Part shown: in pieces, positions 2,097-37,052 of the stretch | How positions within the stretch are numbered: position 1 is the stretch's first letter | Layout: every line of letters starts with the position of its first letter | DNA from: a virus | Taxonomy: Duplodnaviria > Caudoviricetes | DNA length: 42,696 nt | Direction: 5' to 3' (one strand) | Virus record (IMG/VR): IMGVR_UViG_3300048564_000016 | Span: 1-42,696 of that record | The notes under the pieces: generated by a model | Databases searched by the model: none | Told to the model about the DNA's origin: nothing | What the model saw: the letters and a program-made list of their open reading frames with translations, nothing else | Position numbers and translations under genes: made by a program

Positions 2097-2240
2097 TCAT
2101 CCCCCACGCTGCGCCGCGCGCGTCAGTTCCTTCGCCCGCGCCAGCTCCGCTTCCCGCTCAAGCCGAGACTCGCGGCCGAACAGACCGCACAGCACCCAGC
2201 CGAGACAGAACGAACCGATGCACGCGAGAGTGAGGATCAC
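2097..2240 (-). CDS. Small membrane-anchored protein
   Basis: GTG start overlapping the LexA-like stop; hydrophobic N-terminus ILTLACIGSFCLGWVLCGLFG followed by a charged tail. Confidence 0.5.
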   Translation of the reverse strand: MILTLACIGSFCLGWVLCGLFGRESRLEREAELARAKELTRAAQRGG

Positions 2241-2596
2241 GCGGGCGCGCCCTGTAAAACACGAATAGCGCGGGCTGCACGCTTCGTGCGCTCGATGTAG
2301 CCGCGTTTTTCGAGGATCGAGAGAATGCGATGGATGGAGCATTTAGAGGCGTAGCCGGTTCCCTCCATGATCTCCTCGAACGAAGGGCCGATTCCTTGAT
2401 GCTCCGCGACGTAGTCTCGAACGAATTTAAGAACGCGATGCTGGGCTGCGGTGACCGAGAACACCGGCCGCACCGCGCGCGTTTCTCGCAAGCGCTCGAT
2501 CTCAGCGACAGCATCCAGCGCCATCTGGCTCGACGGCATGCCGCGATGAAGCCGTGCGTGGACGAGCAATCGCTGGGTTATGTCCATCTCGCTCAC
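2237..2596 (-). CDS. LexA DNA-binding-domain (winged-helix) protein without peptidase domain
   Basis: TAAQHRVLKFVRDYVAEHQGIGPSFEEIMEGTGYASKCSIHRILSILEKRGYIER..AARAIRV matches the LexA N-terminal domain. GTGA overlap with the cro stop. Confidence 0.8.
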   Translation of the reverse strand: MSEMDITQRLLVHARLHRGMPSSQMALDAVAEIERLRETRAVRPVFSVTAAQHRVLKFVRDYVAEHQGIGPSFEEIMEGTGYASKCSIHRILSILEKRGYIERTKRAARAIRVLQGAPA

Positions 2597-2802
2597 GCCG
2601 CCCTCCCCTGCCCGCGTTCGGCGATGCGTGGCCCGAAGTCCGCGTCGCTGATCGCGCGGCCCTCCGTGTGTGCCGCTCTCAGCGCAGCGGCCTGCAACCA
2701 ATGGGGCGCGCCGCGCTGACGCCACTTCGCCAGCGTGCGTTCGGAGATGTTGGGCCGCTCGCGCCGGGCCACATCGCAGATGAATTTCCAAGAGTCCGAC
2801 AT
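2593..2802 (-). CDS. Cro-like small HTH protein
   Basis: 69 aa, divergent from the repressor; ISERTLAKWRQRGAP is HTH-like. Confidence 0.65.
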   Translation of the reverse strand: MSDSWKFICDVARRERPNISERTLAKWRQRGAPHWLQAAALRAAHTEGRAISDADFGPRIAERGQGRAA

Positions 2803-2808
2803 GTCGGC

Positions 2809-2837
2809 ATACTAGCCAATTTGTCTCCCCGCGACAA
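2809..2837 (-). promoter_or_regulatory. Leftward (PR-like) sigma70 promoter, probably leaderless
   Basis: TTGTCG-17 bp-TAGTAT on the minus strand; the cro ATG follows after 6 nt. Confidence 0.6.
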
Positions 2838-2850
2838 GAGACAATTTGGC
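2815..2850. promoter_or_regulatory. Operator pair (OR-like)
   Basis: GCCAATTTGTC (2815-2825) and GACAATTTGGC (2840-2850); the same 11-bp palindrome recurs at 3250-3302. Confidence 0.7.
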
Positions 2851-2865
2851 GTTCTATAGAAGTTC
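2851..2865. promoter_or_regulatory. Alphaproteobacterial LexA (SOS) box
   Basis: GTTC-TATAGAA-GTTC is an exact GTTC-N7-GTTC, within the divergent control region. Confidence 0.6.
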
Positions 2866-2892
2866 TGTTTTACGCAAAGATAACAGCGGGTT

Positions 2893-3207
2893 ATGTCGAA
2901 TCCGGTGATACTGCGCCCGATGGCGAAGCAGCTTACACCTTTCGAAATATCGGTCGCGCGCCGGGCCGGTTCGGCCGTCCGGGCGATGAGGGAGGCCCGC
3001 AAGTTAACGTGCGAAGACTTGGCGGTCCTGCTTCAAACCTCTGCCGATGCCGTGGCAAAGGCTGAACGCGGCACCCGCCGCTTTTCGCTCGCCGATATTG
3101 CGCGCCTCGCGCTTGAGTTTGATTGCTCAACCGATGATTTAATCTTTGGCCCTGGCCCCCGCCCCGCTATCGTTCGCAGCTCCAAGGTTGTGTGGGCTGC
3201 AGACTAA
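2893..3207 (+). CDS. Cro/CI-type (XRE) HTH repressor, no S24 peptidase domain
   Basis: VRAMREARKLTCEDLAVLLQTSADAVAKAERGTRRFSLADIARLALEFDCSTDDLIFG. A leaderless start at ATG 2920, after GATACT (2907-2912), is also possible. Confidence 0.85.
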   Translation: MSNPVILRPMAKQLTPFEISVARRAGSAVRAMREARKLTCEDLAVLLQTSADAVAKAERGTRRFSLADIARLALEFDCSTDDLIFGPGPRPAIVRSSKVVWAAD

Positions 3208-7833: not shown

Positions 7834-8532
7834 ATGCAGTCGGAAGCCATCAACGAACTCGCCGCCGCGCTGGCAAAGGCGCAAGGCTCATTCACGGCGA
7901 TCAAGAAGGACAAGACCGCTCGCGTTCGCATGAAGTCCGGCGGCGAGTACCAATACAGCTACGCCGATCTCGCCAGCGTTTTGGAGGCGGTGCGAAAGCC
8001 TCTCGCCGACAACGGGCTTGCCTGCGTCCAGGCGATCAATCTGACCGACAATGGCCTGATCTTGCAGACGCGCATTCTGCATTCATCCGGCCAGTGGATC
8101 GGATCGACCTATCCGCTCCCGGCTGGCGGTGCCGCGCAGGAAATGGGATCGGCGCAAACCTATGCGCGGCGGTATGCGCTATGCGCGCTGGTGGGGATCG
8201 TCGCCGAAGATGACGACGATGGTGCGGGCGCGGAAGAGACGAAGCCGCGTCAGAATAAGCCGCACGACCCGTCGCCGCCGCCGGAGCCGCCGCCGACTGC
8301 GCCGACCTACCAACTCATGCACCCAAAAGGGCGCGTCGCGTCGCGGCACGAGCGGCCTAGTCTGTTCCTGTCAGCGCTTGAGGAAGAGATGCGCGGCGCG
8401 AAAGACCCGCATGTCTGGTGGGCAATCAACGGCGCACAGGCCAAGGCCATCGCCGAGCAGTTTCCGCAGGCCAAAGAGAAGGTCGCGGAACTCGAAGAGG
8501 CTGCATCGTTCGGCCGGACCGCGGCGGCGTGA
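7834..8532 (+). CDS. erf: ERF-family single-strand annealing protein
   Basis: INELAAALAKAQ...YSYADLASVLEAVRKPLADNGL...HSSGQWI...QEMGSAQTYARRYALCALVGI..DDD. Confidence 0.9.
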   Translation: MQSEAINELAAALAKAQGSFTAIKKDKTARVRMKSGGEYQYSYADLASVLEAVRKPLADNGLACVQAINLTDNGLILQTRILHSSGQWIGSTYPLPAGGAAQEMGSAQTYARRYALCALVGIVAEDDDDGAGAEETKPRQNKPHDPSPPPEPPPTAPTYQLMHPKGRVASRHERPSLFLSALEEEMRGAKDPHVWWAINGAQAKAIAEQFPQAKEKVAELEEAASFGRTAAA

Positions 8533-8605
8533 GGAATAGGCGCGCGTTCTGTCCCGAACCGCAAGCCTATGCCGGCCGGGGCGTGGTGTCCCGGCCGGCT
8601 TTCCT
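8532..8605 (+). terminator. Two-hairpin structured intergenic element / possible terminator
   Basis: ATAGGC/GCCTAT stem and GCCGGCCGGG/CCCGGCCGGC stem, followed by TTTCC. Confidence 0.45.
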
Positions 8606-8617
8606 GGAGGGAGATAA

Positions 8618-9016
8618 ATGAGCGATCTGTTTTGGTCTAACCGAAATTGGGATTTGTGGCGCTGCTACAAATGCGCCGTCGAAATCATGGTTCCGTCAGG
8701 ATGGAACACAGCGCGGCGAAACGATGTTGGGCAGATGTTCTGCATCAACGGACACCCGCAGGTCTATTGCGAGTCAACGGCAGACAAGCTGCGCCGCGAA
8801 CGGGATACGCTCAAGCAGCAAATGGCGCGGATCGAAGAGGAAAAGCGCGACGCGGAGAAACGCGCCGCTGCCGCCGAAGCCGCAACCAACCGTCTGCGTA
8901 AGCGGGTCGCGGCTGGAATCTGTCCATGCTGCCATCGCTCTGTCAGACAACTCGCGCAGCACATGAAGACCAAACACCCAGACTTCGGCCCGCTGCCGTT
9001 GAAGGCCGTGTCGTGA
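8618..9016 (+). CDS. Zn-finger / coiled-coil hypothetical protein
   Basis: CYKC...CINGH and CPCCHR...HMKTKHP; strong GGAGG RBS. Confidence 0.7.
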   Translation: MSDLFWSNRNWDLWRCYKCAVEIMVPSGWNTARRNDVGQMFCINGHPQVYCESTADKLRRERDTLKQQMARIEEEKRDAEKRAAAAEAATNRLRKRVAAGICPCCHRSVRQLAQHMKTKHPDFGPLPLKAVS

Positions 9017-9396
9017 TTCTTCCGAAGAAACGCGAGCGCATTCGCAGCGGGATAGCCAGAGCGCCGCAGCGCGAGTGGCCGAGACACCGCCGCTGGATAA
9101 GGTCGCTGGAGTGCGTGTGCACCGAACGCCGCGAAATGGTGACCGGGCGGTGGACATGCCAGGGCCGTGTTGAGTGCTGCCATCTTCGCCTTGGGACGCA
9201 TGGACCAATGAGCGATCGGCCGCACGACTGGTTCACCTTTCCCGGCTGTGCCGTGCATCACATGCAGGCTCATCAGATCGGCGAGGCGTCATTTCAAGCG
9301 CTGTACAAGCTGGACCTGCGCGCGATCTGTCTGGCCTTGGCCCGTCAGTCGCCGGACGTGGAAATGCGGAAGGCGATGAGGGAGGCGGGGATATGA
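9013..9396 (+). CDS. DUF968-like (HNH-like Zn) protein
   Basis: HRRWIRSLECVC...CHLR...PHDWFTFPGCAVHHMQAHQIGE. Confidence 0.65.
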   Translation: MILPKKRERIRSGIARAPQREWPRHRRWIRSLECVCTERREMVTGRWTCQGRVECCHLRLGTHGPMSDRPHDWFTFPGCAVHHMQAHQIGEASFQALYKLDLRAICLALARQSPDVEMRKAMREAGI

Positions 9397-10073
9397 CCCC
9401 CATCTGCGCCACGTTCTCGGACTTCCGCTTGGTCAAGGGCCGCAAGGTCTGCCAGCTTGTGTGCGAAGTGCCTCTAGAGCAAGCCGACGCGGCACTGGCC
9501 GCGCTGGGCGGGCTCCCGAATCCCCATGCCGAGCGGTGGGTTGGTATCGTGCCGCTCAAAGCGCAACCGCAGGGCCAAGACAATAGCGGGTCGGCGCCGT
9601 CCCCCTCCCTCGCCGACGCGGCAGACTCGCCCGCTGCCGCTCCCATGTCGCCGTTGCACAAGGCGATAGCGCATTTGTATGAAGATGGGGGCAGCACAGA
9701 GCGGGAAGCGGAGTTCTATCCTTCTGATCCGCGCCCCGCACGGCAAACGCTCCAGGCCCAAGCTCGCGGTGCTACCGAGCCGGCCACCAAACCCAAGAAG
9801 CACTGGGACGAACTCAAGCCGAGCCAGCAGGCGGCAATCGCGGGCCAACGTGCGGATTTCCACGGCTGGCTATGGGACGCCGGACCGTCCGCGCGCTGGG
9901 ACGGCCAGCGGGTTGTTGACGCAACCGAATTTGTTACGCCAGCCGCGTATATCCGCTGGTACTGCGGCGTATCCAGCCGCTCCGACCTCGACACCAACCC
10001 CGAAGCCGCGAAGCGATGGCGCGAACTCCATTCGATGTTCACAGCCGATACGCAATATGGAGACAGGCGATGA
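9393..10073 (+). CDS. Hypothetical phage protein
   Basis: ATFSDFRLVKGRKVCQLVCEVP...AAYIRWYCGVSSRSDL; GGAGG RBS. Confidence 0.7.
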   Translation: MTPICATFSDFRLVKGRKVCQLVCEVPLEQADAALAALGGLPNPHAERWVGIVPLKAQPQGQDNSGSAPSPSLADAADSPAAAPMSPLHKAIAHLYEDGGSTEREAEFYPSDPRPARQTLQAQARGATEPATKPKKHWDELKPSQQAAIAGQRADFHGWLWDAGPSARWDGQRVVDATEFVTPAAYIRWYCGVSSRSDLDTNPEAAKRWRELHSMFTADTQYGDRR

Positions 10074-12513: not shown

Positions 12514-13101
12514 GTGACGACTGCGTATCCGCTGCATTGGCCGATGGGGTTTCCTCGCACGAAGTTCGCCGAATCCGCGCGGTTTCGCACCGGCTACGAT
12601 CAAGCTGTCTCGAATGTCACGAAGTCCTTGCGCGCTTTTGCCAGGGACAGCGGGAAAGACGTAATGAACCTGACGATCAGCAGCAACGTCACGATGATGA
12701 AGCAGGAGCCGCCAGATGGCGGCGTGGCGGTCTATTTTCGCTGGGACAACTTGGATTGCTGCGTTGCGGTCGATCGATATCGGACGCCAGCCGACAACCT
12801 CCAGGCCATTATGCATGTCCTTGAAGCCGAGCGCACCAAGTTGCGTCATGGCGGGCTCAACATCGTGCGAACTGCATTTCGTGGCTACGCCGCTCTACCG
12901 CCCCCGAAGGGGCCCGACGGCCAACTGGCGCCGCCGTGGTGGGACACTCTCGGACTGCCGCAGGGGTCCGCTCTGAGTGCTGCCGAAGCCCGCTATCGCG
13001 AACTCGTGAAGTCTGAGCATCCAGATCGGGGCGGCGACCCGGCACGGTTCAACGTGATCACCGACGCGATGCGTAAAGCGCGCGAAGAGCTGAAGGAGTG
13101 A
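12514..13101 (+). CDS. J-domain (DnaJ-type) protein
   Basis: N-terminal AYPLHWPMGFPRT; C-terminal WWDTLGL...YRELVKSEHPDRGG with the HPD motif. Confidence 0.88.
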   Translation: MTTAYPLHWPMGFPRTKFAESARFRTGYDQAVSNVTKSLRAFARDSGKDVMNLTISSNVTMMKQEPPDGGVAVYFRWDNLDCCVAVDRYRTPADNLQAIMHVLEAERTKLRHGGLNIVRTAFRGYAALPPPKGPDGQLAPPWWDTLGLPQGSALSAAEARYRELVKSEHPDRGGDPARFNVITDAMRKAREELKE

Positions 13102-13104
13102 CAG

Positions 13105-13353
13105 ATGGCCGACTGGATGCCGATCGAGACGGCGCCGAAGGATGGGACTGCAATACTATTCGCGGGAAAGTGGCGCCCGTTTGACGCCAATCCTGGCGGA
13201 ACATGGCATATCGCTATCGCGAGATGGTCAACGTTCATGTCGAACCACACCGGCTATCAATGGATACTCGAACCACTGAATACACTTGATAACATCAATG
13301 TCGAGTTTACCCACTGGATGCCCCTCCCTCCCCCGCCAACCGAGGACCGATGA
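13105..13353 (+). CDS. DUF551-like protein
   Basis: WMPIETAPKDGT...THWMPLPPPP. Confidence 0.85.
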   Translation: MADWMPIETAPKDGTAILFAGKWRPFDANPGGTWHIAIARWSTFMSNHTGYQWILEPLNTLDNINVEFTHWMPLPPPPTEDR

Positions 13354-13680
13354 ATGGTTGACCCTGTGAACCTGACCGGATTGGATGCCGAGATGATCAA
13401 GAAAACCGGCGTCCGGCCCGACCACGAATTGACCGGCTCCCACTTTACGCTCAAGGACGCCGGGTTCCCCTCCCTCGTCCGCCTGGAGCTGCCACTTTCC
13501 ATGGCGCTCGAAAGTGACATCCTCCAGGAACTTGCCAGACTTCAGGGCGATATCATCGAATTGCGCCGCCGTTACGGCACTTCTCAAATACAGTGGGCGT
13601 TTGAGTTGAAAATTCTGATATCGGCTGCCAACGCCAGACTAAAACAGAGATCAAGACTTAGTAGTCAGAACAAAATCTGA
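13354..13680 (+). CDS. Hypothetical protein
   Basis: 108-aa ORF whose 3' end is lower in GC. Confidence 0.5.
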   Translation: MVDPVNLTGLDAEMIKKTGVRPDHELTGSHFTLKDAGFPSLVRLELPLSMALESDILQELARLQGDIIELRRRYGTSQIQWAFELKILISAANARLKQRSRLSSQNKI

Positions 13681-13863
13681 GGCAATATACATTATGCGAC
13701 AGTAATAATCTTACCTACGGGTAATATTGTTTCTGCCGCATTGATTCAAAAAGAACCTTCGACTTCATCCCCGCAATCCACAGCCTTAAAAGCGTTCTCG
13801 CTTGTTCTATACCACGGATTGAGGCCCTTGACGAGCGCGAGCGCAACCTAGCAGGAGTCGCCA

Positions 13864-14964
13864 TTGAGTACCCTTCTCGACCGCCTCCGCGCCATCGTCG
13901 CCCGGTTCTGGCCGTTCGCCGCACCCCCGCAACCTGTCCTGCCGGAACCGCCAGCGGCGCCGCACAAGCCAGAATCGGACGAATCTTTCGGCCGTCACTT
14001 CACCTTGGATGGCCTGTTGGATCGCCTCGACAACTACCATGATGCACTCAGCCAACTAAGGACACGCGACCCTGAGGGGTTCCGATTCTATCGCCACATT
14101 GGCGGCCAAGTCCTGCCGCGCTCGATGCTGTTTGAGATTGCCGAAAATCCCACCGCGAACGTCTTTCGGCCGGCGTTCGGAATGATCCATTTTCTCGATG
14201 ACGAAGACGACAAAGACACCATCGCACCATCGTTGCTCTATTACCGTAAATACGCCGCTCGGCCATATGTCGAGCCGACAAATGATGAGCTTTATGAAAT
14301 CACGATGTATTATCGCGACACGAAACGGCGAAACTTTTCCGCATTCGTCATCTTCCATGTCTCATTCGGGAACGGTCAGGCGCGCTTATTGCGTGAACGG
14401 CATGTCGTCCCGCAACGGCTGCCGCGTGGTGGGACGATTCATCACCACAACTGGCAACACCCGCCAGTATTCAAGGACATGGTCGAGGATAGGCGGCGGC
14501 GTTATCCACATTTGCGAGAAACGCCGGAAAGTCTGGCGTTGGGTCTGTTTAGGTTGATTATTAACGCCACAATCAACGCATCCGATGGCCTGCTAGTCAT
14601 TGCAGCCAAAGACGGCATAATGGCGCGGTTCTCGGTCGATATGCTACGCACACCGTACTTTTTCCGAGACCGCGAAAAAACCATTACGGAAAGCGGCAAG
14701 ACGCGCAAGATTTTCCACATCGCGCGCACGCATAAGCGACGGCTCGCGGATGGCCGTGAGATTTATGTAAAATCTCACTTCCGGGGCGAACGAAAGTTTA
14801 CATGGAAAGGCTATCAAATCACCATCACGATGCCCGGCCTGCACCACGCGCCGATTGAAGCGTTTGACGCCCCGGCACATGAATTTGAGAACGACGAGCC
14901 GCCGCCGGGCTTTGTGGACTCAACCGTGGCAGCCAAAAAGATCGGGGTCGCGCTTCGGCACTAG
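13864..14964 (+). CDS. Orphan 366-aa protein with His/Arg-rich C-terminal motif
   Basis: AGGAG RBS before TTG; C-terminal FHIARTHKRRLADGREIYVKSHFRG; lower GC than flanks. Confidence 0.75.
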   Translation: MSTLLDRLRAIVARFWPFAAPPQPVLPEPPAAPHKPESDESFGRHFTLDGLLDRLDNYHDALSQLRTRDPEGFRFYRHIGGQVLPRSMLFEIAENPTANVFRPAFGMIHFLDDEDDKDTIAPSLLYYRKYAARPYVEPTNDELYEITMYYRDTKRRNFSAFVIFHVSFGNGQARLLRERHVVPQRLPRGGTIHHHNWQHPPVFKDMVEDRRRRYPHLRETPESLALGLFRLIINATINASDGLLVIAAKDGIMARFSVDMLRTPYFFRDREKTITESGKTRKIFHIARTHKRRLADGREIYVKSHFRGERKFTWKGYQITITMPGLHHAPIEAFDAPAHEFENDEPPPGFVDSTVAAKKIGVALRH

Positions 14965-14984
14965 CCCCGCGCCTCGCCGCGCGC

Positions 14985-14990
14985 TATAGT
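14985..14990 (+). promoter_or_regulatory. -10 element TATAGT upstream of the putative ncRNA
   Basis: GCTATAGT lies 4 nt before the first hairpin. Confidence 0.45.
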
Positions 14991-14994
14991 GGAA

Positions 14995-15149
14995 GGGCTG
15001 CGGCGGCAACAGCCCGGTCAGTTGCACAGACCGAAGTAGCGCCGGCCGTCAATGTGCATTCCGGCACGGCGCGAGTTGGGTAATAGAGCGGGGGAAATTC
15101 CGCGTGGCCCGCTGACCCGAAAGGGTACCAATGACGGTGTCGCAGCTAC
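14995..15149 (+). ncRNA. Putative structured non-coding RNA
   Basis: Multiple stems: GGGCTG/CAGCCC, GGTC/GACC, GTAGC/GCTAC, GCCGG/CCGGC, AGCGGG/CCCGCT, ACCC-GAAA-GGGT. No credible ORF. Confidence 0.55.
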
Positions 15150-26135: not shown

Positions 26136-26801
26136 CTACCCCGTGCGAATATCGTAGGCGTCGCCGGCCACGAACGGCGCATCGACGCGGAGAACCTTGA
26201 GGCTGCGGCGGCGGCGCGTCTCGCTCTTGAGCGCCTGGAGCAGCATCGGAATCCGGCGCTCCATGCGTGCGGCCATTCCATCATCATTGATGACGTTCGT
26301 CGCCAGATCGTGCTTGGCGTGGCAGCGGATCAATTCTTCCGCGTCCGTTGTCCAAGCGTTCGAGTCGCCATCGGCGGACAGCGCAGTCAGGCGGTAATGA
26401 TCCGACATCGTCACCGTGCGGACGGCCGAAGGGATCGGATACATCCTGAGTTGCTGGGCGTGATAGGCGTAGCGGTACGGCGGATCGCCCGTCATCCCGC
26501 CGTCCTGCATTGCCGCGATCTCGTCGAACGTCGCCGGCAGAATCTGGTACCGAGTCGTGCCGATGGTCGCGTACATATCGTCGATCTCGATCAGGTTCGG
26601 GATCGCGGCCAGGGCTGCCGATCCGTAATATTCCTGATTGGCAACCAGCGAAAACGTGTCGGTCACGCGGCTGTTGAAATAGAACCGCTGGCGCTCATAG
26701 AACGCGATGGCGCTCTGAATGGCAGCATTGATCTGCGACGTGAGATTGCTATCCGAAATCTCATCGGCGATCCGCGAGCGCATTGTCGCGTACGTGGTCA
26801 T
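26136..26801 (-). CDS. Head-tail adaptor protein
   Basis: MTTYATMRSRIADEI...LRMYPIPS...DSNAWTTDAEELIR; synteny. Confidence 0.75.
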   Translation of the reverse strand: MTTYATMRSRIADEISDSNLTSQINAAIQSAIAFYERQRFYFNSRVTDTFSLVANQEYYGSAALAAIPNLIEIDDMYATIGTTRYQILPATFDEIAAMQDGGMTGDPPYRYAYHAQQLRMYPIPSAVRTVTMSDHYRLTALSADGDSNAWTTDAEELIRCHAKHDLATNVINDDGMAARMERRIPMLLQALKSETRRRRSLKVLRVDAPFVAGDAYDIRTG

Positions 26802-27025
26802 CAGCCGGCCTTTCGCGGACGGCCCGGCCGGCGCCGCTCGCCGTAGACCTCACCCGTCACAGTCGGCAGGCGCGGCCCCTCGGGCGGCCCCATCGGGCCG
26901 TCCACGGCGCCGGGAACCTTGTCCGGCGAATCGTAGTGAGCCGGCGGGAACTGATCGACGCCGTCGAACCACCGCCAGCCGATGCGGCCGTGTTCGGTCC
27001 GGTAGTAGCCTCTCAGCATGGCCAT
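26801..27025 (-). CDS. Small protein with C-terminal AT-hook-like motif
   Basis: TGATG coupling; ends RRRPGRPRKAG. Confidence 0.6.
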   Translation of the reverse strand: MAMLRGYYRTEHGRIGWRWFDGVDQFPPAHYDSPDKVPGAVDGPMGPPEGPRLPTVTGEVYGERRRPGRPRKAG

Positions 27026-27702
27026 CAGGCCGCCTCCGCCAGTTTGGCTTTGATGTCGGCCAGGAGCGACGGCCCCCAGTTGCCTTGGAATACGCGGCCG
27101 TCCTTGTCGACATGGCGCATCGGCATGTTGGCGACGCCCCACAGTTTCCCGCCGGCCTCGTGCCAGAGCCGACAGAACTCGACATCCTCGCCCCAATACT
27201 TCCTGCCCCGGATGTCGGTCTTGAAGTAGGCGCGCATCATCGGGCCGCCGGCCACGCTGTATTCTTCGACGCGGTCTTTCAGCGTCTCGAACACCTCACG
27301 GCGGATACGCATCAGGCCCGTTGGGATGACAAGGCACTGAATCAGCCCCTCGGAATGAACCTCCGGGTTGGGCGCCAGATCGACCGGCCAAAGGATCGGA
27401 TCGCACTTCTTGGGATAGATGCCCGCCACGATCTCGGGCGAGAAGTCACGCAGCCGCGTCAGCGCGTCGCGCGGGAACCCGACATCGTCATCGACGAACA
27501 CCATGTCGTCGGCCTTGCTGGCGAGGAACTTCTGCACCAGCATGTTGCGCGTGTTGTCGATGTAGCAGTTTCCCGCGATGGCCACGAAATCGTAGTCGTA
27601 CTTGCTGCCCAAGCCTTCGAGCGCGGCCTTCAGCGACCGCTGCGTCTCCGGCATCGCAGTCCCGGAGTAGGTCGCCATCGCGATAAAGAGACGGCGCCTC
27701 AT
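27025..27702 (-). CDS. GT-A fold glycosyltransferase (GT2-like), copy 2
   Basis: LFIAMATY, IDNTRNMLV, FVDDD (DxD), PTGLMRIRREVFE, GEDVEFC. Confidence 0.8.
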   Translation of the reverse strand: MRRRLFIAMATYSGTAMPETQRSLKAALEGLGSKYDYDFVAIAGNCYIDNTRNMLVQKFLASKADDMVFVDDDVGFPRDALTRLRDFSPEIVAGIYPKKCDPILWPVDLAPNPEVHSEGLIQCLVIPTGLMRIRREVFETLKDRVEEYSVAGGPMMRAYFKTDIRGRKYWGEDVEFCRLWHEAGGKLWGVANMPMRHVDKDGRVFQGNWGPSLLADIKAKLAEAA

Positions 27703-28433
27703 GCGGCCCCCTTGTGGTCGCTCATCTGCACCACGCGGTTCGGATCGTTCGCCCCGCCCGGCTGTTCCGAAAGCCACTGATGGAAGTTGCCGGGATACGG
27801 CGTATCGCCGTCCCAATGCGTCAACTCCATGTCGGGAACGACCCAAAGCTGCTTGCCCATGTCGTTCCACCGCTGCGAGAACGAATAGTCCTCGCCGAAC
27901 CACGTCCCGCCACGCGCACCGTGGTTGAACAGATCGACATGCGGCCCCCACAGCGGGCCGTAGGTCAGATCGGGATAGGCGCGCATGAAGGCGTCCACTG
28001 CCTCGTGCGTGACCTTGAGGAAGCCGGCAGGAACCCACTGAGCCCGCACCGCCCCGTCCTCGCGCACGATCGGGCGGCCGTCATGACTCGGATAGAGTTT
28101 GCCCATGTACGGGCATTCGCCGCCGGTCTGTTCCGGCGGAATCTTGAAGCGGTACGTTCCCGCGACAACCCAACCGGGCGTCTTGATCAGCTTCACGAGG
28201 TCTTCCGGCGACCAGCTCAGATCGTGATCGATGAAGATCACCATTGAGCACTTGTCGTCAAGTGCTCGCCTCAGCATCTTCGATCGCGCGTGCGAGATAT
28301 ACGGCGAGCCGATCTCGAACGTGGTGCGGTGTTCCCAACCCTCCGCGTCGAGCGCCGGGACGCTGGCCTCCAGCGCCTCCAGATACTTCGGATGCGGCCT
28401 GGTGATGGTCGGGGTGGCAATGACGATCTTCAC
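27699..28433 (-). CDS. GT-A fold glycosyltransferase (GT2-like), copy 1
   Basis: IVIATPT, ISHARSKML, FIDHD (DxD), PAGFLKV, GEDYSFSQRW. Confidence 0.8.
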   Translation of the reverse strand: MKIVIATPTITRPHPKYLEALEASVPALDAEGWEHRTTFEIGSPYISHARSKMLRRALDDKCSMVIFIDHDLSWSPEDLVKLIKTPGWVVAGTYRFKIPPEQTGGECPYMGKLYPSHDGRPIVREDGAVRAQWVPAGFLKVTHEAVDAFMRAYPDLTYGPLWGPHVDLFNHGARGGTWFGEDYSFSQRWNDMGKQLWVVPDMELTHWDGDTPYPGNFHQWLSEQPGGANDPNRVVQMSDHKGAA

Positions 28434-28969
28434 TTTGATCCGGCCCCGATGAGATTGTGTCCTGACGCGCGGTTGACGACGTGCCGGACGAAACCAGCCG
28501 CCACGAACGCGCGCTCAAGAGTGGATTTGATGTACCCGCAGCGATGCTGCATCCACGGGCTGCTTCTGACGTTGTGCCCGTAAATCATGTCGAGCCCCGT
28601 GATCGGACCGGCCGGCGATTCGTAGACCGGAACATCGGTCGGCTCGATGCCCTCCAAATCCGGGACGATGACCAGCGCAAAGCCACCCGGCTTGAGGATG
28701 CGGTGAAACTCCCGCAATGCCTGTGCCGCGTCATGCGTGTTCAAATGTTCGAGCGCGTGCGACGTGTAGACCGCGTCGAACTCGCCGTCTCCGATCAGGT
28801 CGAGATTCGCCATGCTGCCCACCATGTCGGGGTAGCACTCCGGGTCGATGTCGAGCCGCGTCTCTGCCCAATCCGGGAAGATGTCCCGGTCGATCTCGCG
28901 CCGGCCGCAGCCGGCATGCAGGACGCGGCGCGGCTCCACCTTGACGGCAAGAGCCGCGCCGCTCTGCAT
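28430..28969 (-). CDS. Class I SAM-dependent methyltransferase (Methyltransf_11-like)
   Basis: VLHAGCG, RLDID, FDAVYTSHALEHL, EFHRILKPGG...VPD; ATG 28969 overlaps the upstream TGA. Confidence 0.88.
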   Translation of the reverse strand: MQSGAALAVKVEPRRVLHAGCGRREIDRDIFPDWAETRLDIDPECYPDMVGSMANLDLIGDGEFDAVYTSHALEHLNTHDAAQALREFHRILKPGGFALVIVPDLEGIEPTDVPVYESPAGPITGLDMIYGHNVRSSPWMQHRCGYIKSTLERAFVAAGFVRHVVNRASGHNLIGAGSK

Positions 28970-29229
28970 CAGGCCGACCCCTTCCAGAGCGAGACGGCCG
29001 TGAGCGTGTTCATGATCTCGATCACCGCCGCCTTGAAATCGGACGTAACGTCCGCGCTCGAAGCCGTGCCGACCGTGGACGTGGCCTGCGCCGCGGCGGC
29101 GCGCTGCGAAACGGCCGTGGCAAGACCGTAGAACCCAAGCTTGTCGCTTGTCGCGATGCCGAGGATCGTGCCGTCCGGGTTGCCGTCGGCAAGTTGCTTC
29201 TGCTGCGTGGCGCTGTACGAAGTGCCCAT
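28969..29229 (-). CDS. Small Ser/Thr/Ala-rich capsid-associated (decoration-like) protein
   Basis: AAGGAGG RBS directly after the capsid gene; DKLGFYG motif, C-terminal helix. Confidence 0.65.
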   Translation of the reverse strand: MGTSYSATQQKQLADGNPDGTILGIATSDKLGFYGLATAVSQRAAAAQATSTVGTASSADVTSDFKAAVIEIMNTLTAVSLWKGSA

Positions 29230-29241
29230 GTGATTTCCTCC

Positions 29242-30426
29242 TTACGCGGCGTTCTGAAAGCGCACGGCCCACTCGGGACGAATGCACTTGTAGCCGTAAA
29301 GCATGTCGATACGAGTGGCCATCACGTCGTTGGTGATCTGGTAGTCGCTGATCACCCGCATGGACAGGTTGTCCAGGCGCTTGCGCGCGGCCATGTGCGT
29401 CCCGCCCGGCAGCGGAAGGTCGGCCGTGACGAACGTGAAGGCGTCCTTGTGGTACAGCATCGACAGCCCATGCTGGACCGACGCCGTGCCGATCTTCGTC
29501 ACCGCGCCGGTATCGGTCGGCGATGCAGAGCAGTTCTGCGTCGGGCCGGTGATGACGATCGACGGGCTGATCGCAATCGACGTGCCCGAAGACGTAACGG
29601 CCGTGGTCACGACGAACTGCTGCAATTCGCCGGTATCGACCTTCGTTTCGGGATGCACGCGATTGCACCCGGCGAAGGTGATGATGTCGCCGACAACCAG
29701 CGTCTTGGACGTGGTGTTGGTGACCGTGACCGACGCGCCGGTCTGGTTGGCGCCGTTCACGTCCATCTCGTTCGTGGACGAGCCCGTGGTGTGTGTCGGC
29801 CAGAGCGAGTTGGCGTAGAAGTCGAACCCGAAGGCGTGGCCCATCGCGCCGTCGAGATACTGCTTCTCGATCTGCTTCTGGGCATGGAACAGCGCCTGGA
29901 GCGAGCCAACCAGCTTGACCTGGTCCTTGTTGTTGAGGTTCGCGATCAGCTCGTTTCCGGGCACGAGGTTCTGGCGAAGAATACGCAGGCCGTCGAGCGC
30001 CTTGTCGGCGGTCGCGGTCGTGGTCGTGTTGTCCACGGCATTGAACACGTCGCGATACATCAGCATCGCGTCGTATTCGATGTTCGCAGCCAGGACCGAC
30101 ATCGCCGGTTCGATGTAGCGCTCGCGGAACTTGTCCAGCGAGAGGGCGAGTTCGGTCATGGAAAAGTCCATGTCCACGCCCTTCTGCGTCGCCAGAGTGA
30201 GCGTCTGGCTGTCCTCCGTGATGCCCTGCACGTCCATCACGCGGCCGGTGCGGACCGAAAAACGGTTGGGCATGCGGATTCGCAGCGTCGATCCGATCTT
30301 GGAGCCAGGCTTGGCAAACTGGTCGTCGTACTGCGTGTTGATCGTGCCGATGAAGTTGAGCTTCTGATGAAGCACGGTGAGGGCTTCACTCGTGATCATG
30401 TCGATGGTGAGCTGGGTATTGCTCAT
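29242..30426 (-). CDS. Major capsid protein (P22 gp5-like)
   Basis: MSNTQLTIDMITSEAL...KIGSTLRIRMP...RYIEPAMSVLA...RIDMLYGYKCIRPEWAVR. Confidence 0.92.
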   Translation of the reverse strand: MSNTQLTIDMITSEALTVLHQKLNFIGTINTQYDDQFAKPGSKIGSTLRIRMPNRFSVRTGRVMDVQGITEDSQTLTLATQKGVDMDFSMTELALSLDKFRERYIEPAMSVLAANIEYDAMLMYRDVFNAVDNTTTTATADKALDGLRILRQNLVPGNELIANLNNKDQVKLVGSLQALFHAQKQIEKQYLDGAMGHAFGFDFYANSLWPTHTTGSSTNEMDVNGANQTGASVTVTNTTSKTLVVGDIITFAGCNRVHPETKVDTGELQQFVVTTAVTSSGTSIAISPSIVITGPTQNCSASPTDTGAVTKIGTASVQHGLSMLYHKDAFTFVTADLPLPGGTHMAARKRLDNLSMRVISDYQITNDVMATRIDMLYGYKCIRPEWAVRFQNAA

Positions 30427-31462: not shown

Positions 31463-31969
31463 TCACGACAACAGAAACCACTCGTCGTCATCCCGGAGCA
31501 GCCGCAAGCGGCGCTCCAGTCCGATCTGGATCGACCGTTCGACCTCAAGCGCGCGGAGTTGTTCGCGCAATTTGACCCGGCCCCGGCGCGACCGCTGGAT
31601 TTGCTCGCCGAGTGCCGCAATCCTGGCGTCCAGTGCCGCGATATCGACCCGATCTGGCACGGAAACCGGGACAGTTGGCGGCGGCTCGTCCTCATCGTCG
31701 CGGCGTCGGCGGCGGCGGGAATATGGATCGTAGACCCACCCGCCGGATGGCGCCGTAGGCGTGGGAGTCGGCGTCGGGGTGACGCCGGACTCTTCCTTGC
31801 CCGCAAAGGTGCCGTACCGACCGCCAGGGCCGGCATAAGGGCGAAGCTGCGTGATCGTGCCCGGATTGTGCGGGCCGGGCGGAACGCCGCTGTCAGCCTC
31901 TTTGCCGGCGAAAGAGCCGTAACGCTGGCCGGGGCCGGCGTGCGGAGTAAGTTGAGTGAGCGCAACCAC
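31463..31969 (-). CDS. Repeat-containing hypothetical virion-associated protein
   Basis: Two 20-aa repeats, a (PT)n linker, a coiled coil and DDDEWFLLS at the end. Confidence 0.65.
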   Translation of the reverse strand: MVALTQLTPHAGPGQRYGSFAGKEADSGVPPGPHNPGTITQLRPYAGPGGRYGTFAGKEESGVTPTPTPTPTAPSGGWVYDPYSRRRRRRDDEDEPPPTVPVSVPDRVDIAALDARIAALGEQIQRSRRGRVKLREQLRALEVERSIQIGLERRLRLLRDDDEWFLLS

Positions 31970-31970
31970 A

Positions 31971-33020
31971 TCAGACGATGATGAAGGTGTCGCCCGACGC
32001 CGGAGCCGTCGTGAGCGCCGTTACAGTGAAGGTCTGCGTGGCGTGGACGAAATCCGTGATGTCCGTGGCCTGATTCCGCAGCGCCGCCGTCGTCGTGTCG
32101 CTGTTGAAAATCATGATGCGGCCGTTGAACTGGTCATTCACCGCAGACGCGGGCGACAGCGCCGACGCCACAATCGAGGTCGTGCTTCCGCCCGTGTCGC
32201 AGGTACCGGTGCAGATCGCTTCGGTGGACAGTTCGAGCGTATCCGCCGCCGCCGTGCTGCCGCTGATCGCGAGCGCATCGGACTTCATGTTGCCGCCGGC
32301 CGTGAGCGCGGCCGGCAGGCGGGCCTGAATGTCCGCAATCTCGGTGTCGATGAAGTTGTCGATCGCGTCGATCTTGCCGTCCAGCGTCGTGCCGGTGTCG
32401 ACGAGGATCGCCGCCGTATCGACTTTCACGGCCGCGATATCCGCGCTGACCGAAGCGCCGGCCGGCGTGCCGAGCTTCGGCTGCATGTCCGCCGTGTCGG
32501 TCAGGATCGCGTCAACGTTGGTCGCTAGCGCCGCGACGTTCGTGGTCGCTCCAGCAACGTGCGTCAGATCGACCTCGGGCACGCCGGCAACTGATGGCGT
32601 CGCGGCAGCCGTGCCGAGCCATGCGTCCACGTCCACTTTCGGCTTGCCCGCGATGGCTTCGGCCGCCACGATGCGGAACGTCGCCGCGATGAAGTTGACC
32701 GTCTGGCTGTCGATCGTCACCGACGACACGACAACCCAATAGAACGAGCCGACCGCGTAGAAGCTGGCGTCCGTGTTGTCGCTCAGATCAATCGAAAACC
32801 CATGGATACCGGTTAAGCCGTCGAAGTCGATGCCGTCCGTGTCCAGGAGCGTGTAACCCGCGTCGCTCGCGCGCTGCGTCACCGAGCCGTTCTTGTAGAT
32901 TTCGATATCGGTCACGGCGAGCCCGGTCAGCGTGATCGACTCGCCGTTCGTCTTGCCGTAAGACGCGAAAGGGATATAGAGCGTGCTGTTGGCGGGCACG
33001 TTCCCGAGATGCAGCGTCAT
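31971..33020 (-). CDS. Thr/Asp-rich putative head-fibre protein
   Basis: 349 aa with ILTDT/ILVDT/FIDT heptad-like repeats and terminal beta domains. Confidence 0.65.
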   Translation of the reverse strand: MTLHLGNVPANSTLYIPFASYGKTNGESITLTGLAVTDIEIYKNGSVTQRASDAGYTLLDTDGIDFDGLTGIHGFSIDLSDNTDASFYAVGSFYWVVVSSVTIDSQTVNFIAATFRIVAAEAIAGKPKVDVDAWLGTAAATPSVAGVPEVDLTHVAGATTNVAALATNVDAILTDTADMQPKLGTPAGASVSADIAAVKVDTAAILVDTGTTLDGKIDAIDNFIDTEIADIQARLPAALTAGGNMKSDALAISGSTAAADTLELSTEAICTGTCDTGGSTTSIVASALSPASAVNDQFNGRIMIFNSDTTTAALRNQATDITDFVHATQTFTVTALTTAPASGDTFIIV

Positions 33021-33784
33021 GCCGCGAGCCTTCCACGCACGAGGTTAGGACGGATGAGGTTGCCGCCGATGAGTTTTGGCGTCGCGGCTGCCCCACCGGA
33101 TGATGTGAACGCGCCTGGCCACCAGTTCGCGCCGTCGAACGGTCGCGCAACGGGTGGGTGATCCTTCAGTGACGTTCCAGTCAGCGCACCGCTGTTGCCG
33201 TTGCCGCTCCAATCAGGCTCCGGCGACGCCGCCCCAAAGATTGGCAGATAGGCTCCGAGTTCGAGCCCCAATGCGAACGGCCCCTTGCGATATACGGTCT
33301 GCACTTGATCGGCAGTCCACGCCGCGTCGTCGATCGCGACTTCCGCTATACCGCCGTCCCAATATCCGCCTCCGACCTCGGACCCAAGAATGACGTTGTT
33401 CGTCAAGACCCGGCTGCCCGCGCCGAGCGAGGCTGAAGCGCCGGCAGAATCGACGCCATCGATGTATATCTTCGATGCGTCGTTGCCCGATGCGATCCCG
33501 ACGATGTGGTGCCACGCGCCCGTCGTCGGCGTTGCGGCTTCCACGTACTTGAGATTGGTCCCGTCCCACCAGATGAACCACAGACGCGCTGTGTTCGGAC
33601 CGACCACGTATTGCTGGCGAAGGATGTAATTGCCGTTCTTGCGGACGATCTCGCGATTTCCCGTGCCGCCGATGTTCGTGTCGGCCCACGCCCACACGGA
33701 AACGGTCAGCGCCGAGGTCGAGTCAAGCGACGCGGCATCCGTCACCGTGATGTAGTCGCTCGACCCGTTGAAATCGCGCGCCAT
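33017..33784 (-). CDS. LamG / concanavalin A-like lectin domain protein
   Basis: FNGSSDYI...LTVSVW...WHHIVG...IYIDGV...WDGGIAEVAI. Confidence 0.85.
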   Translation of the reverse strand: MARDFNGSSDYITVTDAASLDSTSALTVSVWAWADTNIGGTGNREIVRKNGNYILRQQYVVGPNTARLWFIWWDGTNLKYVEAATPTTGAWHHIVGIASGNDASKIYIDGVDSAGASASLGAGSRVLTNNVILGSEVGGGYWDGGIAEVAIDDAAWTADQVQTVYRKGPFALGLELGAYLPIFGAASPEPDWSGNGNSGALTGTSLKDHPPVARPFDGANWWPGAFTSSGGAAATPKLIGGNLIRPNLVRGRLAA

Positions 33785-33786
33785 CG

Positions 33787-34290
33787 TCAGGCGTCCGCGT
33801 ACTGAAAGATCAGATCGAACAGCACGGCCGTCGCCGCAATCGTGTCCGACGATGCGCCGTCGCGGCCGAACAGGAACTCGACGGTCTCGCCGGCTGCGAA
33901 GTTCGCCGCGGTTGCCGTCATGCTTGCCACCATCCGGCGCAACGCCGCGCCGGGTGCGGCGTCGGTGACGGTCAAGGCTTCCTCGGTGCCGGACTGGTCG
34001 AGACTGTTGGCGTCATCGCCCGCAACGGTGCGGTAATCCAAGTCCCAAATCGCGTTACCGCTCGTCGCCGTCGTGGTCCAGATCACCTTGAACACGCCAG
34101 AGCCGACGTAGTTCTGCGGAACCGTGAACTGCCCATAGACCAGATCGCGCGTCGATGTGTCCTTGAACGCGATGACGAGATGCTTCCACACGTCGTTGGT
34201 CGCGAGCGTGTCGAACATCGTCGCGTAGACGTTGCCAGACCCGCCGAGCGACAGCGAGCCGTTGAGGATGCTGATCTGATGCGTCGCCAT
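33787..34290 (-). CDS. Putative structural beta-sandwich protein
   Basis: GGAGG RBS; beta-rich sequence in the head accessory cluster. Confidence 0.65.
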   Translation of the reverse strand: MATHQISILNGSLSLGGSGNVYATMFDTLATNDVWKHLVIAFKDTSTRDLVYGQFTVPQNYVGSGVFKVIWTTTATSGNAIWDLDYRTVAGDDANSLDQSGTEEALTVTDAAPGAALRRMVASMTATAANFAAGETVEFLFGRDGASSDTIAATAVLFDLIFQYADA

Positions 34291-34291
34291 G

Positions 34292-34540
34292 TCAGCCTCC
34301 GACCTCGAACGTCACGCGCGCCCATTCGCGGAACAAGCGCTTCTTTTGCCCCGCCGTGAGCGACAGCGGCGATACTGCCGCATCGATGGCCTGCGACATC
34401 GCCGTCTGCACCGTCGCGCCGCGCATCGTGTCCTCGATCGCCTGAAACGCGGCGTTGGCCTGCGGCTTGGTCCACGGCACCGAGCCGTTCTGGGCGCCCT
34501 GTCGGCACTGTTGGAGTTGCGCTGCGGTGAGAACTGCCAT
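34292..34540 (-). CDS. Hypothetical protein
   Basis: 82 aa with GAAGG RBS; first gene of the accessory cluster. Confidence 0.6.
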   Translation of the reverse strand: MAVLTAAQLQQCRQGAQNGSVPWTKPQANAAFQAIEDTMRGATVQTAMSQAIDAAVSPLSLTAGQKKRLFREWARVTFEVGG

Positions 34541-34707: not shown

Positions 34708-35496
34708 TCATTGCAGCGTCGCTCCGGTGGGCTGGGCTTCGTCTATCGGCTCGTCGATCGATTCCACGATGAACCCGTTTTGATCGCGCACCGGGCGGCG
34801 CTTCATGCGCGGCATCGCCACGTTGATCTTGACCTGCGACAGCCCATCCTTGACCGCCTGCGCCACGATCATTGCGATGTCTCGATCCGGGTTCGCGGCC
34901 TTCGCCGCCTTTTCGTTCGAGGTGCGGATTTCTCGCTCGGCCTGTTGGTCAGCAGACTTGTCTGCCAGTTCCGCCTGCTTGCCGGCCTTCCATGCCTCTA
35001 GCTCGGCTTCCCACATGGCCTTGTCTCGCGCCAACTCGTGGTCCGCCTTGGCCTTGTCGCGCGCAAGAATCGCGTCGTTCTTCAGCTTCTGCTGTGCAAG
35101 GATCAGGTCGTTCTGAGCCTTCTGCTTGTCCGCCTCAAGCTGCGCGGCCATCTCCGCCATCTTGACCTTGGCCGGGTCTTGCGGTGCCGATTGAGCGGCC
35201 AGCGCCTCGATCTTCTTGGTGATTTCTTCGATGCCGGGAACGTCGAGCGTCTTGAGCAAGAGCGGACCGAGCACCGACGCGAACTGCGGATTGCCGCGCA
35301 TCGCCTCGGTTAGAGCCGCCGCAGTCTCTTCGCGCCGCGTCGTGAACGACGGACCGGCTTGGACGACGAGGTCGTACTTGCCCGCCGTGAGGTCGAACAC
35401 CTCGGGGGCCGGTGTCGCTTCCTGGCCCGGCGACACCGCGTCCATCTGATCTTGCGGGCCGGGCATCCCCGGAAGCGGCAGATTGGTCGCCATCAC
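34708..35496 (-). CDS. Portal protein, C-terminal part (crown/barrel)
   Basis: FDLTAGKYDLVVQAGPSFTTRREE corresponds to the P22-type portal segment; long coiled coil follows. Confidence 0.8.
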   Translation of the reverse strand: MMATNLPLPGMPGPQDQMDAVSPGQEATPAPEVFDLTAGKYDLVVQAGPSFTTRREETAAALTEAMRGNPQFASVLGPLLLKTLDVPGIEEITKKIEALAAQSAPQDPAKVKMAEMAAQLEADKQKAQNDLILAQQKLKNDAILARDKAKADHELARDKAMWEAELEAWKAGKQAELADKSADQQAEREIRTSNEKAAKAANPDRDIAMIVAQAVKDGLSQVKINVAMPRMKRRPVRDQNGFIVESIDEPIDEAQPTGATLQ

Positions 35497-37052
35497 ATGC
35501 CCCCGATCTGCGGCGGCATTTGCATCTGCGCTCCGGGGCCGGGCATCTGCGGAGGCGGCATCTGCATCTGTGCCGGCGGCCCCATCGGCTTAGGCCCGAT
35601 CTGCACCGTCTGCGCCTTGCCGTCCTCTCCGAGAATGCGAACCATCCGCTGCCCGCTGTACACCTTCGGGATGAGGTCCAGCATGATCACGCCGGCATGG
35701 CGGATCGCGCGGTTTAGGTTGTCCGCGAAATGGAACGTGGCAACGTCGCCCTCCCGCTGACGCGCCATGATCGCGCGGCCGGACGTTTCGTTGCTCTTCG
35801 CCCCGAGACTGGCGTTGTACATGCCGAGCGACGCTTTGATGTCGTCGTTCGCCAGCATCGCCTGGTTGAGCGCGCCCGCAGGGATTCCAGCAAAGGGCTG
35901 GCGCTGCGGCATTTCATCGCCCTTGTATTCGAGAAATGGATGATTCTCGCTGTTGGCAGTTGCCCACCGCTCGTCGATGTCGAACGCCCCTTCTTTCCCA
36001 ATGAATGGCGCCTTGGGGGCGAGCGCGATCAGTTCCGTGGCAGCCGACCGCCAGAAGTTGAAATTGCACTGGGCGTCCTTGGCGTCGCGGATCAGGCTCT
36101 TGAAGATGCGCTTGCCGTCAAGCACCACTTCCTCGCCATAGACCGGGATGATCGGGATGTAGCGGCCGGGCCACGGGTTGCGCTCAAGCACGTCCGCCCC
36201 GGTCATCAGCGTGTTGGTCACCTTCATCGAAGGCGCCATGCGCTCGGCAACGACCGTAATTCCCGCGATCTGCGCCACGGCCTGCTTGCTCGATCCGTCC
36301 TCGAACTTCCGAACGAAGTCCTCTTCGGCAATCACAGTCCCGTCGCTCAGTCGCAGAATCTTGCGCTGCACCTTTTCGCGCCGCCACCACAGCGCAACCA
36401 TGACCTCGTCGCCCTTGTGCCACGGGGCCTCAAGCAGCTTGTGATCGGCATCGTCCCAATTCACGCCGTCCGCGCCGGGGAAGCGTTTGGCGAACGTCGC
36501 CTTGTCGATGATCTCGGTCTGAAAGGCGTTGTTCCAGTCCGACGAGTCCGCCTCGGTGCTGTAGGGATCGCCGTAGATCGTCAGCGGATTGGCGACGCGC
36601 TTGAGCCGGATATCCTGGTCGAACGTGTCGTCGCAGGAATACTCGACCGTGACCGTTGCGTAGCCGAATCCCCCAGCGATGGCGTTGTCCGCCGCCGTGT
36701 CCCACACTGTATCAGCGTGGCTCTGCTGTTCGATGTTGCGGATCAACCCGGTGAAAACGTCCGCCGTCTTGATGTCGGCTCCGCTGTCGACCGGACGCAC
36801 CTTGATCGCGGGGCGATTCTGGCGGATGTCGTTCATCACCTGCCGCTGAAACTGCGGCAGCATGTTGATCGTCAGCGTCGGGCGGCCGGCGCGCTTCGCC
36901 GCCCAGTTCACGCCGCCGACCGTCCATTGATGTTCCCCACCGATGCGGGCGAACTCGACATCCTCGACGAACGCTGCGCGGTTGTCGGCTTCCGCCTCGC
37001 TGGCGAGTTTGAACGCCTCCAGGGCTTCGTCGAGAGTGTCGCGGTCAGCCAA
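35493..37052 (-). CDS. Portal protein, N-terminal part (P22 gp1-like)
   Basis: TTG start after GGGGG overlapping the terL stop; GRPTLTINML...RQNRPAIKVRP, WPGRYIPIIPVYG, SNETSGRAIMARQREGD. Confidence 0.88.
   Translation of the reverse strand: MADRDTLDEALEAFKLASEAEADNRAAFVEDVEFARIGGEHQWTVGGVNWAAKRAGRPTLTINMLPQFQRQVMNDIRQNRPAIKVRPVDSGADIKTADVFTGLIRNIEQQSHADTVWDTAADNAIAGGFGYATVTVEYSCDDTFDQDIRLKRVANPLTIYGDPYSTEADSSDWNNAFQTEIIDKATFAKRFPGADGVNWDDADHKLLEAPWHKGDEVMVALWWRREKVQRKILRLSDGTVIAEEDFVRKFEDGSSKQAVAQIAGITVVAERMAPSMKVTNTLMTGADVLERNPWPGRYIPIIPVYGEEVVLDGKRIFKSLIRDAKDAQCNFNFWRSAATELIALAPKAPFIGKEGAFDIDERWATANSENHPFLEYKGDEMPQRQPFAGIPAGALNQAMLANDDIKASLGMYNASLGAKSNETSGRAIMARQREGDVATFHFADNLNRAIRHAGVIMLDLIPKVYSGQRMVRILGEDGKAQTVQIGPKPMGPPAQMQMPPPQMPGPGAQMQMPPQIGGM

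Follow-up and report, generated by a model that had tools for sequence, protein, structure and literature searches.

Glycosylation of mycobacteriophage virions was reportedly treated by Freeman et al. in 2023, who are said to have covered the systems of Che8 (gp108-110), of Corndog and cluster O, and of Myrna. These systems are phage-encoded clusters of soluble glycosyltransferases (GTs), and so is the locus considered here, a cassette in the late operon of a P22-like podophage represented by the IMG/VR record IMGVR_UViG_3300048564_000016, whose 42,696 nucleotides were analysed as a whole and are called the window below. Between the genes for the major capsid protein (coat) and the head-tail adaptor, the window carries, all on the minus strand, genes for an 86-amino-acid (aa) protein that we call S86, a methyltransferase, two GTs (GT1 and GT2) and a 74-aa peptide. 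Tailed-phage virion glycosylation is documented in mycobacteriophages, where it protects virions against antibodies, in the sections of PMC13445384, PMC12363180 and PMC11600133 available to us, and it is also treated in the accessible portion of PMC12619734. In those phages it is capsid and tail tube that carry the modification, whereas in the window phage and its relatives the enzyme tracks a separate small fibre-like gene; unlike the mycobacteriophages, the window phage is P22-like, with related prophages in Proteobacteria. We judge, from sequence comparison and a fold model and with a probability of about 60%, that the cassette would produce a phage-made O-glycan, methylated in the window phage, whose main acceptor is the putative capsid fibre S86.

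Corndog provides a precedent for a methyltransferase and GTs among head genes: its genes 35-38 sit immediately before the capsid maturation protease gene, and the available text of PMC11600133 places an O-methyltransferase ahead of three GTs in cluster O mycobacteriophages. The sequences are unrelated to those of the window, GT profiles scoring at most 5.8 bits against the Che8 and Corndog enzymes, and tblastn with the GT returned seven records, none of them a mycobacteriophage. A197 of Sulfolobus turreted icosahedral virus (STIV) is, like GT1, a minimal stand-alone GT-A enzyme and is proposed to glycosylate its own virion; STIV differs in being an archaeal double-jelly-roll virus, A197 is only 14-17% identical to GT1, and the part of PMC10551542 consulted describes no S86 or methyltransferase partner for it. 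Maf flagellin O-glycosyltransferases, whose Maf_flag10 domain (PF01973) is related to GT42, modify Ser/Thr residues of a filament protein that is dedicated to them and often encoded nearby (10.1101/2020.06.03.131540, in the part seen). In relatives of the window phage, the place behind S86 is taken by a similar gene, either instead of the GT or together with it; this gene is absent from the window itself, and the relatives' versions, which fall below the Pfam cut-off, are assigned a putative function from sequence. The S86 cassette is real, widespread and coherent, and would represent a variant of known virion glycosylation.

The fairest survey of the association was anchored on the coat gene. 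It started from 120 rows, of which 14 with less than 1.2 kb downstream were removed, and gave 85 clusters at 90%, the window's copy included. S86 and an enzyme occurred together in 15 of these 85 P22-type coat loci, S86 only in 3, an enzyme only in 1 and neither in 66; that is, a transferase lay behind S86 in 15/18 loci that have S86 versus 1/67 loci that lack it (Fisher p 7e-13, kinship ignored). On the coat tree, 11 changes were counted for each trait, and among nine independent pairs (starred branches) an average of 7.5 pointed in the same direction and 0.0 in the opposite one (median p 0.008, range to 0.07). Since related phages gain and lose S86 and the enzyme together, the likely product of an S86-enzyme unit is a capsid fibre coated with sugar. 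It is S86, rather than the coat alone, to which the enzyme is linked, and the evidence points more to S86 than to the capsid as the enzymes' partner. Three of the 15 loci with both genes hold a Maf-like (PF01973-like) transferase, labelled after inspection.

Three further surveys were drawn from alignments of S86-linked genes and therefore lean towards linked clades, which the coat-anchored set does not. The GT-anchored set comprised 101 loci (the best 79 viral ones of 554 relatives, besides the window's copy, and 22 from genomes) in 63 clusters. Among its 59 dereplicated loci with at least 1.5 kb upstream, coat was found in 56, an S86 relative in 57 (two copies in 13) and a methyltransferase in 21; the misses include L035, where S86 in fact overlaps the GT start, and L267, which is without head genes. 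The linkage to structural genes that a preliminary description of this DNA had put forward is thus strongly borne out, here and in the coat-, methyltransferase- and Maf-anchored counts alike. When the S86 motif served as the anchor, 80 of 120 loci had flanks and 64 of these lay behind coat; an A197-like GT followed in 51 of the 60 informative loci whose S86-motif protein is small (not dereplicated), and at L163 another GT2-like gene was seen by eye after S86. Anchoring on the methyltransferase in metagenomes retrieved 79 loci (61 clusters, 37 with both flanks), and in these 37 a GT was present in 37, S86 in 36 and coat in 36. A second methyltransferase family, fused to the GT, was found at L099. 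Related loci also occur in the isolate Rhizobium ecuadorense CNPSO 671, in Phenylobacterium, Hyphomicrobiales and Rhodocyclaceae and in other assemblies, most of the host assemblies being metagenome-assembled genomes whose binning may be wrong. The Rhizobium prophage holds a minimal version, with a 77-aa S86 and a 221-aa GT between coat and adaptor.

At L088, L285 and L315 the gene behind S86 resembles PF01973 and encodes about 250-270 aa in phages. The L088 product scored 18.5 bits against PF01973, below the cut-off of 34.6; in the Atlas, the Maf-like gene scored 0.95-0.96 to clusters of which 26-94% carry PF01973, and 10/10 named hits agree. The Maf-like profile had no match in PDB or in cultured phages. 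These three sequences retrieved 79 loci, with 54 clusters having 1.5 kb upstream, of which 47 contained coat and 46 contained S86 (five of these matches overlap the enzyme start, the coded tally being 41); at L368 an S86-like gene was recognized by eye upstream of the Maf-like gene. An A197-like GT was also present in six of the 54, and a methyltransferase in none. That two unrelated transferase folds should occupy one slot argues for more than hitch-hiking, namely a link in function with S86. L406, L423, L424 and L425 belong to an unrelated phage group; there the Maf-like gene holds the corresponding slot, preceded by a capsid gene of another type and a gene for 160-190 aa.

In the window, the P22-like identity of the phage follows from its terminase, portal, scaffold, coat, adaptor and ejection genes (Pfam and PHROGs), and direct terminal repeats flank the 42.7-kb record (CheckV estimate 58%). 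The cassette and its borders are as follows.

29242..30426, minus strand: P22-type major capsid protein (coat), 394 aa (PF11651, E 4e-35; phrog_283), the anchor of the cassette and an alternative acceptor
28969..29229, minus strand: S86, 86 aa, head-fibre-like by alignment motif and co-occurrence, likely a capsid fibre and likely the acceptor
28430..28969, minus strand: class I S-adenosylmethionine-dependent methyltransferase, 179 aa, optional (PF08241 Methyltransf_11, E 1e-10), likely acting in glycan methylation
27699..28433, minus strand: GT1, a soluble A197-like GT-A glycosyltransferase, 244 aa (phrog_1574, E 7e-14; model; alignment)
27025..27702, minus strand: GT2, a second GT-A of another subfamily, 225 aa (phrog_1574, E 4e-13), likely adding a second sugar
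26801..27025, minus strand: 74-aa Pro/Gly-rich peptide whose basic tail has GRPRK as its end motif; probably accompanies head genes in general
26136..26801, minus strand: head-tail adaptor (PF24175, E 7e-13), the right border of the cassette

S86 begins 12 nt past the coat stop, and this position directly behind coat is conserved among relatives; the successive junctions downstream of S86 overlap by 1, 4, 4, 1 and 1 nt. The GC content of the cassette, overall and at third codon positions (GC3), equals that of the neighbouring head genes. Both the gene order and the overlapping junctions given in the preliminary description agree with the coordinates and with the Pfam and PHROGs matches. Its statement that the enzymes have no transmembrane segments also holds, the top 19-residue hydropathy window being 0.57-1.01 in the three proteins, with no match to a gtr-type family. 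P22 gtrABC likewise places GT genes in a P22-like phage. That system consists of a membrane flippase, a membrane-anchored GtrB and a polytopic GtrC; the window cassette, in contrast, has no membrane segments, flippase or membrane transferase and sits inside the head operon. Genes for sugar synthesis were not encountered in the window. The description needs correcting over the peptide, which it called AT-hook-like and which probably lies outside the cassette proper: small genes with basic tails follow coats regardless of enzymes (similar tails in 5/15 loci with enzymes versus 21/86 without, by a crude motif count on loci that were not dereplicated), and the peptide itself was detected in just one close relative among the GT-anchored loci. 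The peptide is therefore rejected as a cassette-specific gene. Contigs from RNA libraries cover the operon evenly from terminase to the tail genes (in X5, a single contig spans 26975-38500); this coverage is indistinguishable from DNA carry-over and was not used as evidence of transcription.

Ser and Thr make up 24% of S86. The family alignment shows a conserved G-F-Y-G..P..Q-R motif, a variable Ser/Thr/Ala segment and a C-terminal helix, which the monomer model places at residues 61-78 with low confidence (predicted local distance difference test score, pLDDT, 63). Phage head-fibre proteins (PF11133, phrog_4366/6994) are likewise products of small genes directly behind coat, with a C-terminal helix. 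PF11133 was the nearest named family in the Atlas (score 0.93, 17% of cluster members), which is a lead only, and distant S86 relatives, as opposed to S86 itself, match the PHROG families weakly (E 0.006-0.03). From the gene position and the likeness to head-fibre families, S86 would be a fibre or spike on the capsid. Neither S86 nor its short L125 form had a match in cultured phages; S86 had no PDB match, and Foldseek with the low-confidence model returned nothing. Long fibre-like proteins encoded away from coat, mostly without a GT, likewise end in the motif and helix (L133, L147, L148, L177 and L191), and the motif looks like a general fibre module on sequence grounds. At L134, L206 and L271, the S86 module forms the N-terminus of long proteins (208 to >500 aa) behind coat, as expected of a capsid anchor bearing longer fibres; at L206, acetyltransferase-like and GT2-like genes follow, as judged by eye.

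Several results weigh against S86 as the main acceptor. Counting A197-like GTs alone lowers the coat-anchored association to 12/18 versus 1/67, and the loci lacking S86 were screened by in-house profiles and by eye. At L115, a P22-type locus without S86, a fusion of GT2 and TylF (a sugar O-methyltransferase) lies among structural genes at 8266-9705; this fusion, which is beyond the adaptor, and a methyltransferase-like gene behind coat at L306 were both tallied under "neither". S86 stands without an enzyme in 3/18 coat-anchored and 8/60 S86-motif-anchored loci. At L283 an S86 with a very Ser/Thr-rich loop has no enzyme, and at L347 a GT and a methyltransferase lie directly behind coat with no S86; these two loci go against a strict one-to-one pairing. 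The S86 family had no Pfam match, PF11133 included, in any of 52 members at E 0.1. The Ser/Thr content of the S86 loop separates sequences with and without enzymes weakly (37 versus 6; count p 0.10, fraction p 0.04, densest window p 0.014), and the motif filter flatters this result by having excluded L283 and L331. Gene overlaps like those of the cassette are found elsewhere in the late operon and, as sole evidence, are weak. Neighbouring genes may also travel together without acting on one another.

Some of these points would fit enzymes that modify the coat, or several head and tail proteins, with S86 as a co-travelling decoration or one of several acceptors. Residues 200-315 of the window coat are 30% Ser/Thr, and the median Ser/Thr fraction of this region is 0.246 in coats with an enzyme versus 0.217 in those without (16 versus 69; p 0.006, kinship uncorrected). 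L347 agrees with such a role, as do the mycobacteriophage GTs that act on capsid and tail tube (PMC12363180 and PMC11600133, available sections) and A197, whose acceptor is the STIV coat by proposal, unproven in the part of PMC10551542 consulted. However, in 11 hand-picked sister pairs the coat with an enzyme was higher in Ser/Thr in 6, lower in 4 and equal in 1, and 66/67 coat loci without S86 have no enzyme. We regard the coat, or a mixture of acceptors, as an unlikely main target. The Ser/Thr richness of the coat insertion domain was rejected as a predictor of the enzyme, as it does not track in sister pairs; the S86 loop tracks only weakly.

The only family matched by GT1 and GT2 is phrog_1574, whose function is unnamed; no Pfam or NCBIfam family was found. 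Relatives of GT1 made up 1950 of 2140 candidates. The GT1 model (pLDDT 94.7) has a predicted GT-A alpha/beta fold, and its best Foldseek match is STIV A197 (2c0n, E 1e-7), with which VIA aligned 163/191 residues (Z 17.1, rmsd 2.3). Mnn9 (Z 13.9), LH3 (13.8) and mimivirus R699 (13.5) follow, as does an entry labelled procollagen galactosyltransferase (COLGALT1, Z 13.2). The GT-A assignment of the preliminary description was in this way upheld by the modelled structure, A197 and protein glycosyltransferases sharing the fold. Because many further GT-A enzymes match the model at Z 10-13, the fold leaves the acceptor unfixed. In a viral library the top rows were uncultured phage proteins, with a PBCV-1 protein at E 1e-9 and a putative glycosyltransferase of SFV1 at 7e-9; a PDB search returned nothing with the GT1 sequence and only COLGALT1 (E 0.02) with the GT profile. 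GT2, assigned to GT-A by sequence homology (phrog_1574, GT1) and with intact DDD and GED motifs, is 23% identical to GT1, for which alone a fold model was made. In a 25-row tree the GT1 clade had 100/100 support and GT2 fell in a separate subfamily, beside methyltransferase-fused forms. The two are homologous, as had been noted, but the 100/100 branch that parts them excludes a recent tandem duplication. One true relative (L007) has a GT pair, and the apparent pairs at L266 and L268 each look like one frameshifted gene. A distant GT relative lies beside a gene annotated as a glycosyltransferase among the structural genes of the cultured Pelagibacter phage HTVC027P (L005, 6893-7804), with HTVC023P as a second cultured case.

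Non-virion and non-catalytic roles are, taken jointly, improbable, and it is likely, in line with what the preliminary description proposed, that the enzymes glycosylate some virion protein. GT-fold proteins might serve on the virion as sugar-binding parts or as folding helpers of S86, as the tight S86 linkage would allow and as vaccinia H3, a GT-fold protein of a viral envelope (Z 9.8), illustrates. This we hold to be highly improbable: R50, D69-x-D71 and E181-D182, residues of catalytic type, are invariant in 50/50 aligned GT1-family sequences (of the 121 at hand), and the obligate methyltransferase partner and the swap for another transferase fold argue for chemistry.

Polysaccharide and glycolipid GTs are among the structural neighbours of GT1 (Z 11-13), and PF01973 also holds MptE kinases. 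Maf domains, moreover, modify host flagellin (10.1101/2020.06.03.131540, in the part seen), and the enzymes might act late on a host target (pilin or flagellin, the precursor of a surface polymer, a protein involved in defence, or a small molecule), their place in the head operon giving strong expression. Such a role is very unlikely, as it leaves unexplained why S86 precedes each of three enzyme types and the methyltransferase, why membrane partners are lacking and why the GT family occurs almost only in this slot.

To hypermodification of phage DNA at packaging we give hardly any credence, although DNA-glycosylating phage GT-A enzymes have the same R..DxD..ED motifs (10.1101/2023.12.21.572611, in the portion available), which counts against a protein acceptor. 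DNA glyco-hypermodification clusters set a GT beside 5mYOX and a C5-methyltransferase or a thymidylate synthase, whereas the window GTs have head genes as neighbours, as in 56/59 loci. In agreement with the preliminary description, no DNA-modification genes, those just named included, were matched among the scanned window ORFs (open reading frames; Pfam 39+60 and PHROGs 30+69 ORFs), and a six-frame Tet_JBP search of the genome was empty, its control being silent too. The GT family is acidic (median isoelectric point 5.4, above 8 in 2/50) and in this is unlike a DNA-binding enzyme.

If S86 is the main acceptor, an optional module between coat and adaptor would consist of a small, likely capsid-bound fibre that travels with its own soluble enzymes, made late together with the head proteins. 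GT1, the common and often sole enzyme, would transfer the first sugar from a host nucleotide-sugar onto Ser/Thr of S86, and GT2 would extend the glycan; GT1 is placed first because it is usually alone, and the methyltransferase, because it is always beside a GT, is taken to cap the glycan. One may speculate that the role of the glycan is to protect the particle surface or adjust its properties, in terms of stickiness, proteolysis, grazers or host contact. More tentatively, a swappable glyco-fibre module may be widespread in P22-like phages of Proteobacteria, one small capsid fibre being joined by one or another of at least three unrelated transferases (A197-like GT-A, Maf-like, another GT2-like) and by optional methyltransferases to give variable virion glycans; as part of the same tentative proposal, the glycan in Maf-like cases might be the host's own flagellar nonulosonic acids.

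Should S86 be the acceptor, no smaller dedicated pair for protein O-glycosylation would be known from a phage than that of the Rhizobium prophage, and the range of virion glycosylation would come to include environmental phages of Gram-negative hosts, a large group, an enzyme being present in 16/85 sampled P22-type coat loci. A testable function would also be gained for phrog_1574, for an unnamed small protein family and for a viral Maf-like family. The system would offer a tractable route to A197-like acceptor chemistry, that of STIV included, and the two-gene acceptor/enzyme pair a compact tool for glyco-display. Within the searches made, with thin coverage of subscription papers and survey supplements, the literature contained no report of the S86 cassette, of glycosylated P22-like virions or of a sugar-coated capsid fibre in phages of Gram-negative bacteria, in line with the earlier remark that no proteobacterial podophage equivalent had been characterised.

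Near-identical DNA is present in bioreactor and wastewater runs, and our guess is that the host of the window phage is an alphaproteobacterium. The P22-type portal gene (34708-37046, minus strand) is split: two frames, which overlap at a TGATG (35495-35491) within a Pro/Gln/Met-rich stretch, cover profile positions 2-467 and 476-586. The letters at the split site are identical in a contig from another run, so the split is not an error of a single assembly and is either natural or a strain frameshift. Five genes lie between portal and scaffold (31463-34540), among them those for a LamG lectin-like 255-aa protein and Ser/Thr-rich proteins of 349 and 167 aa; it is possible that proteins of this interval are further head decorations and acceptors. 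LexA-type and helix-turn-helix regulators are encoded at 2237-3207 and an Erf recombinase is present, while an integrase was unmatched among the scanned ORFs. A low-GC island (0.55) at 13000-15000 contains an unannotated 366-aa ORF at 13864-14964.

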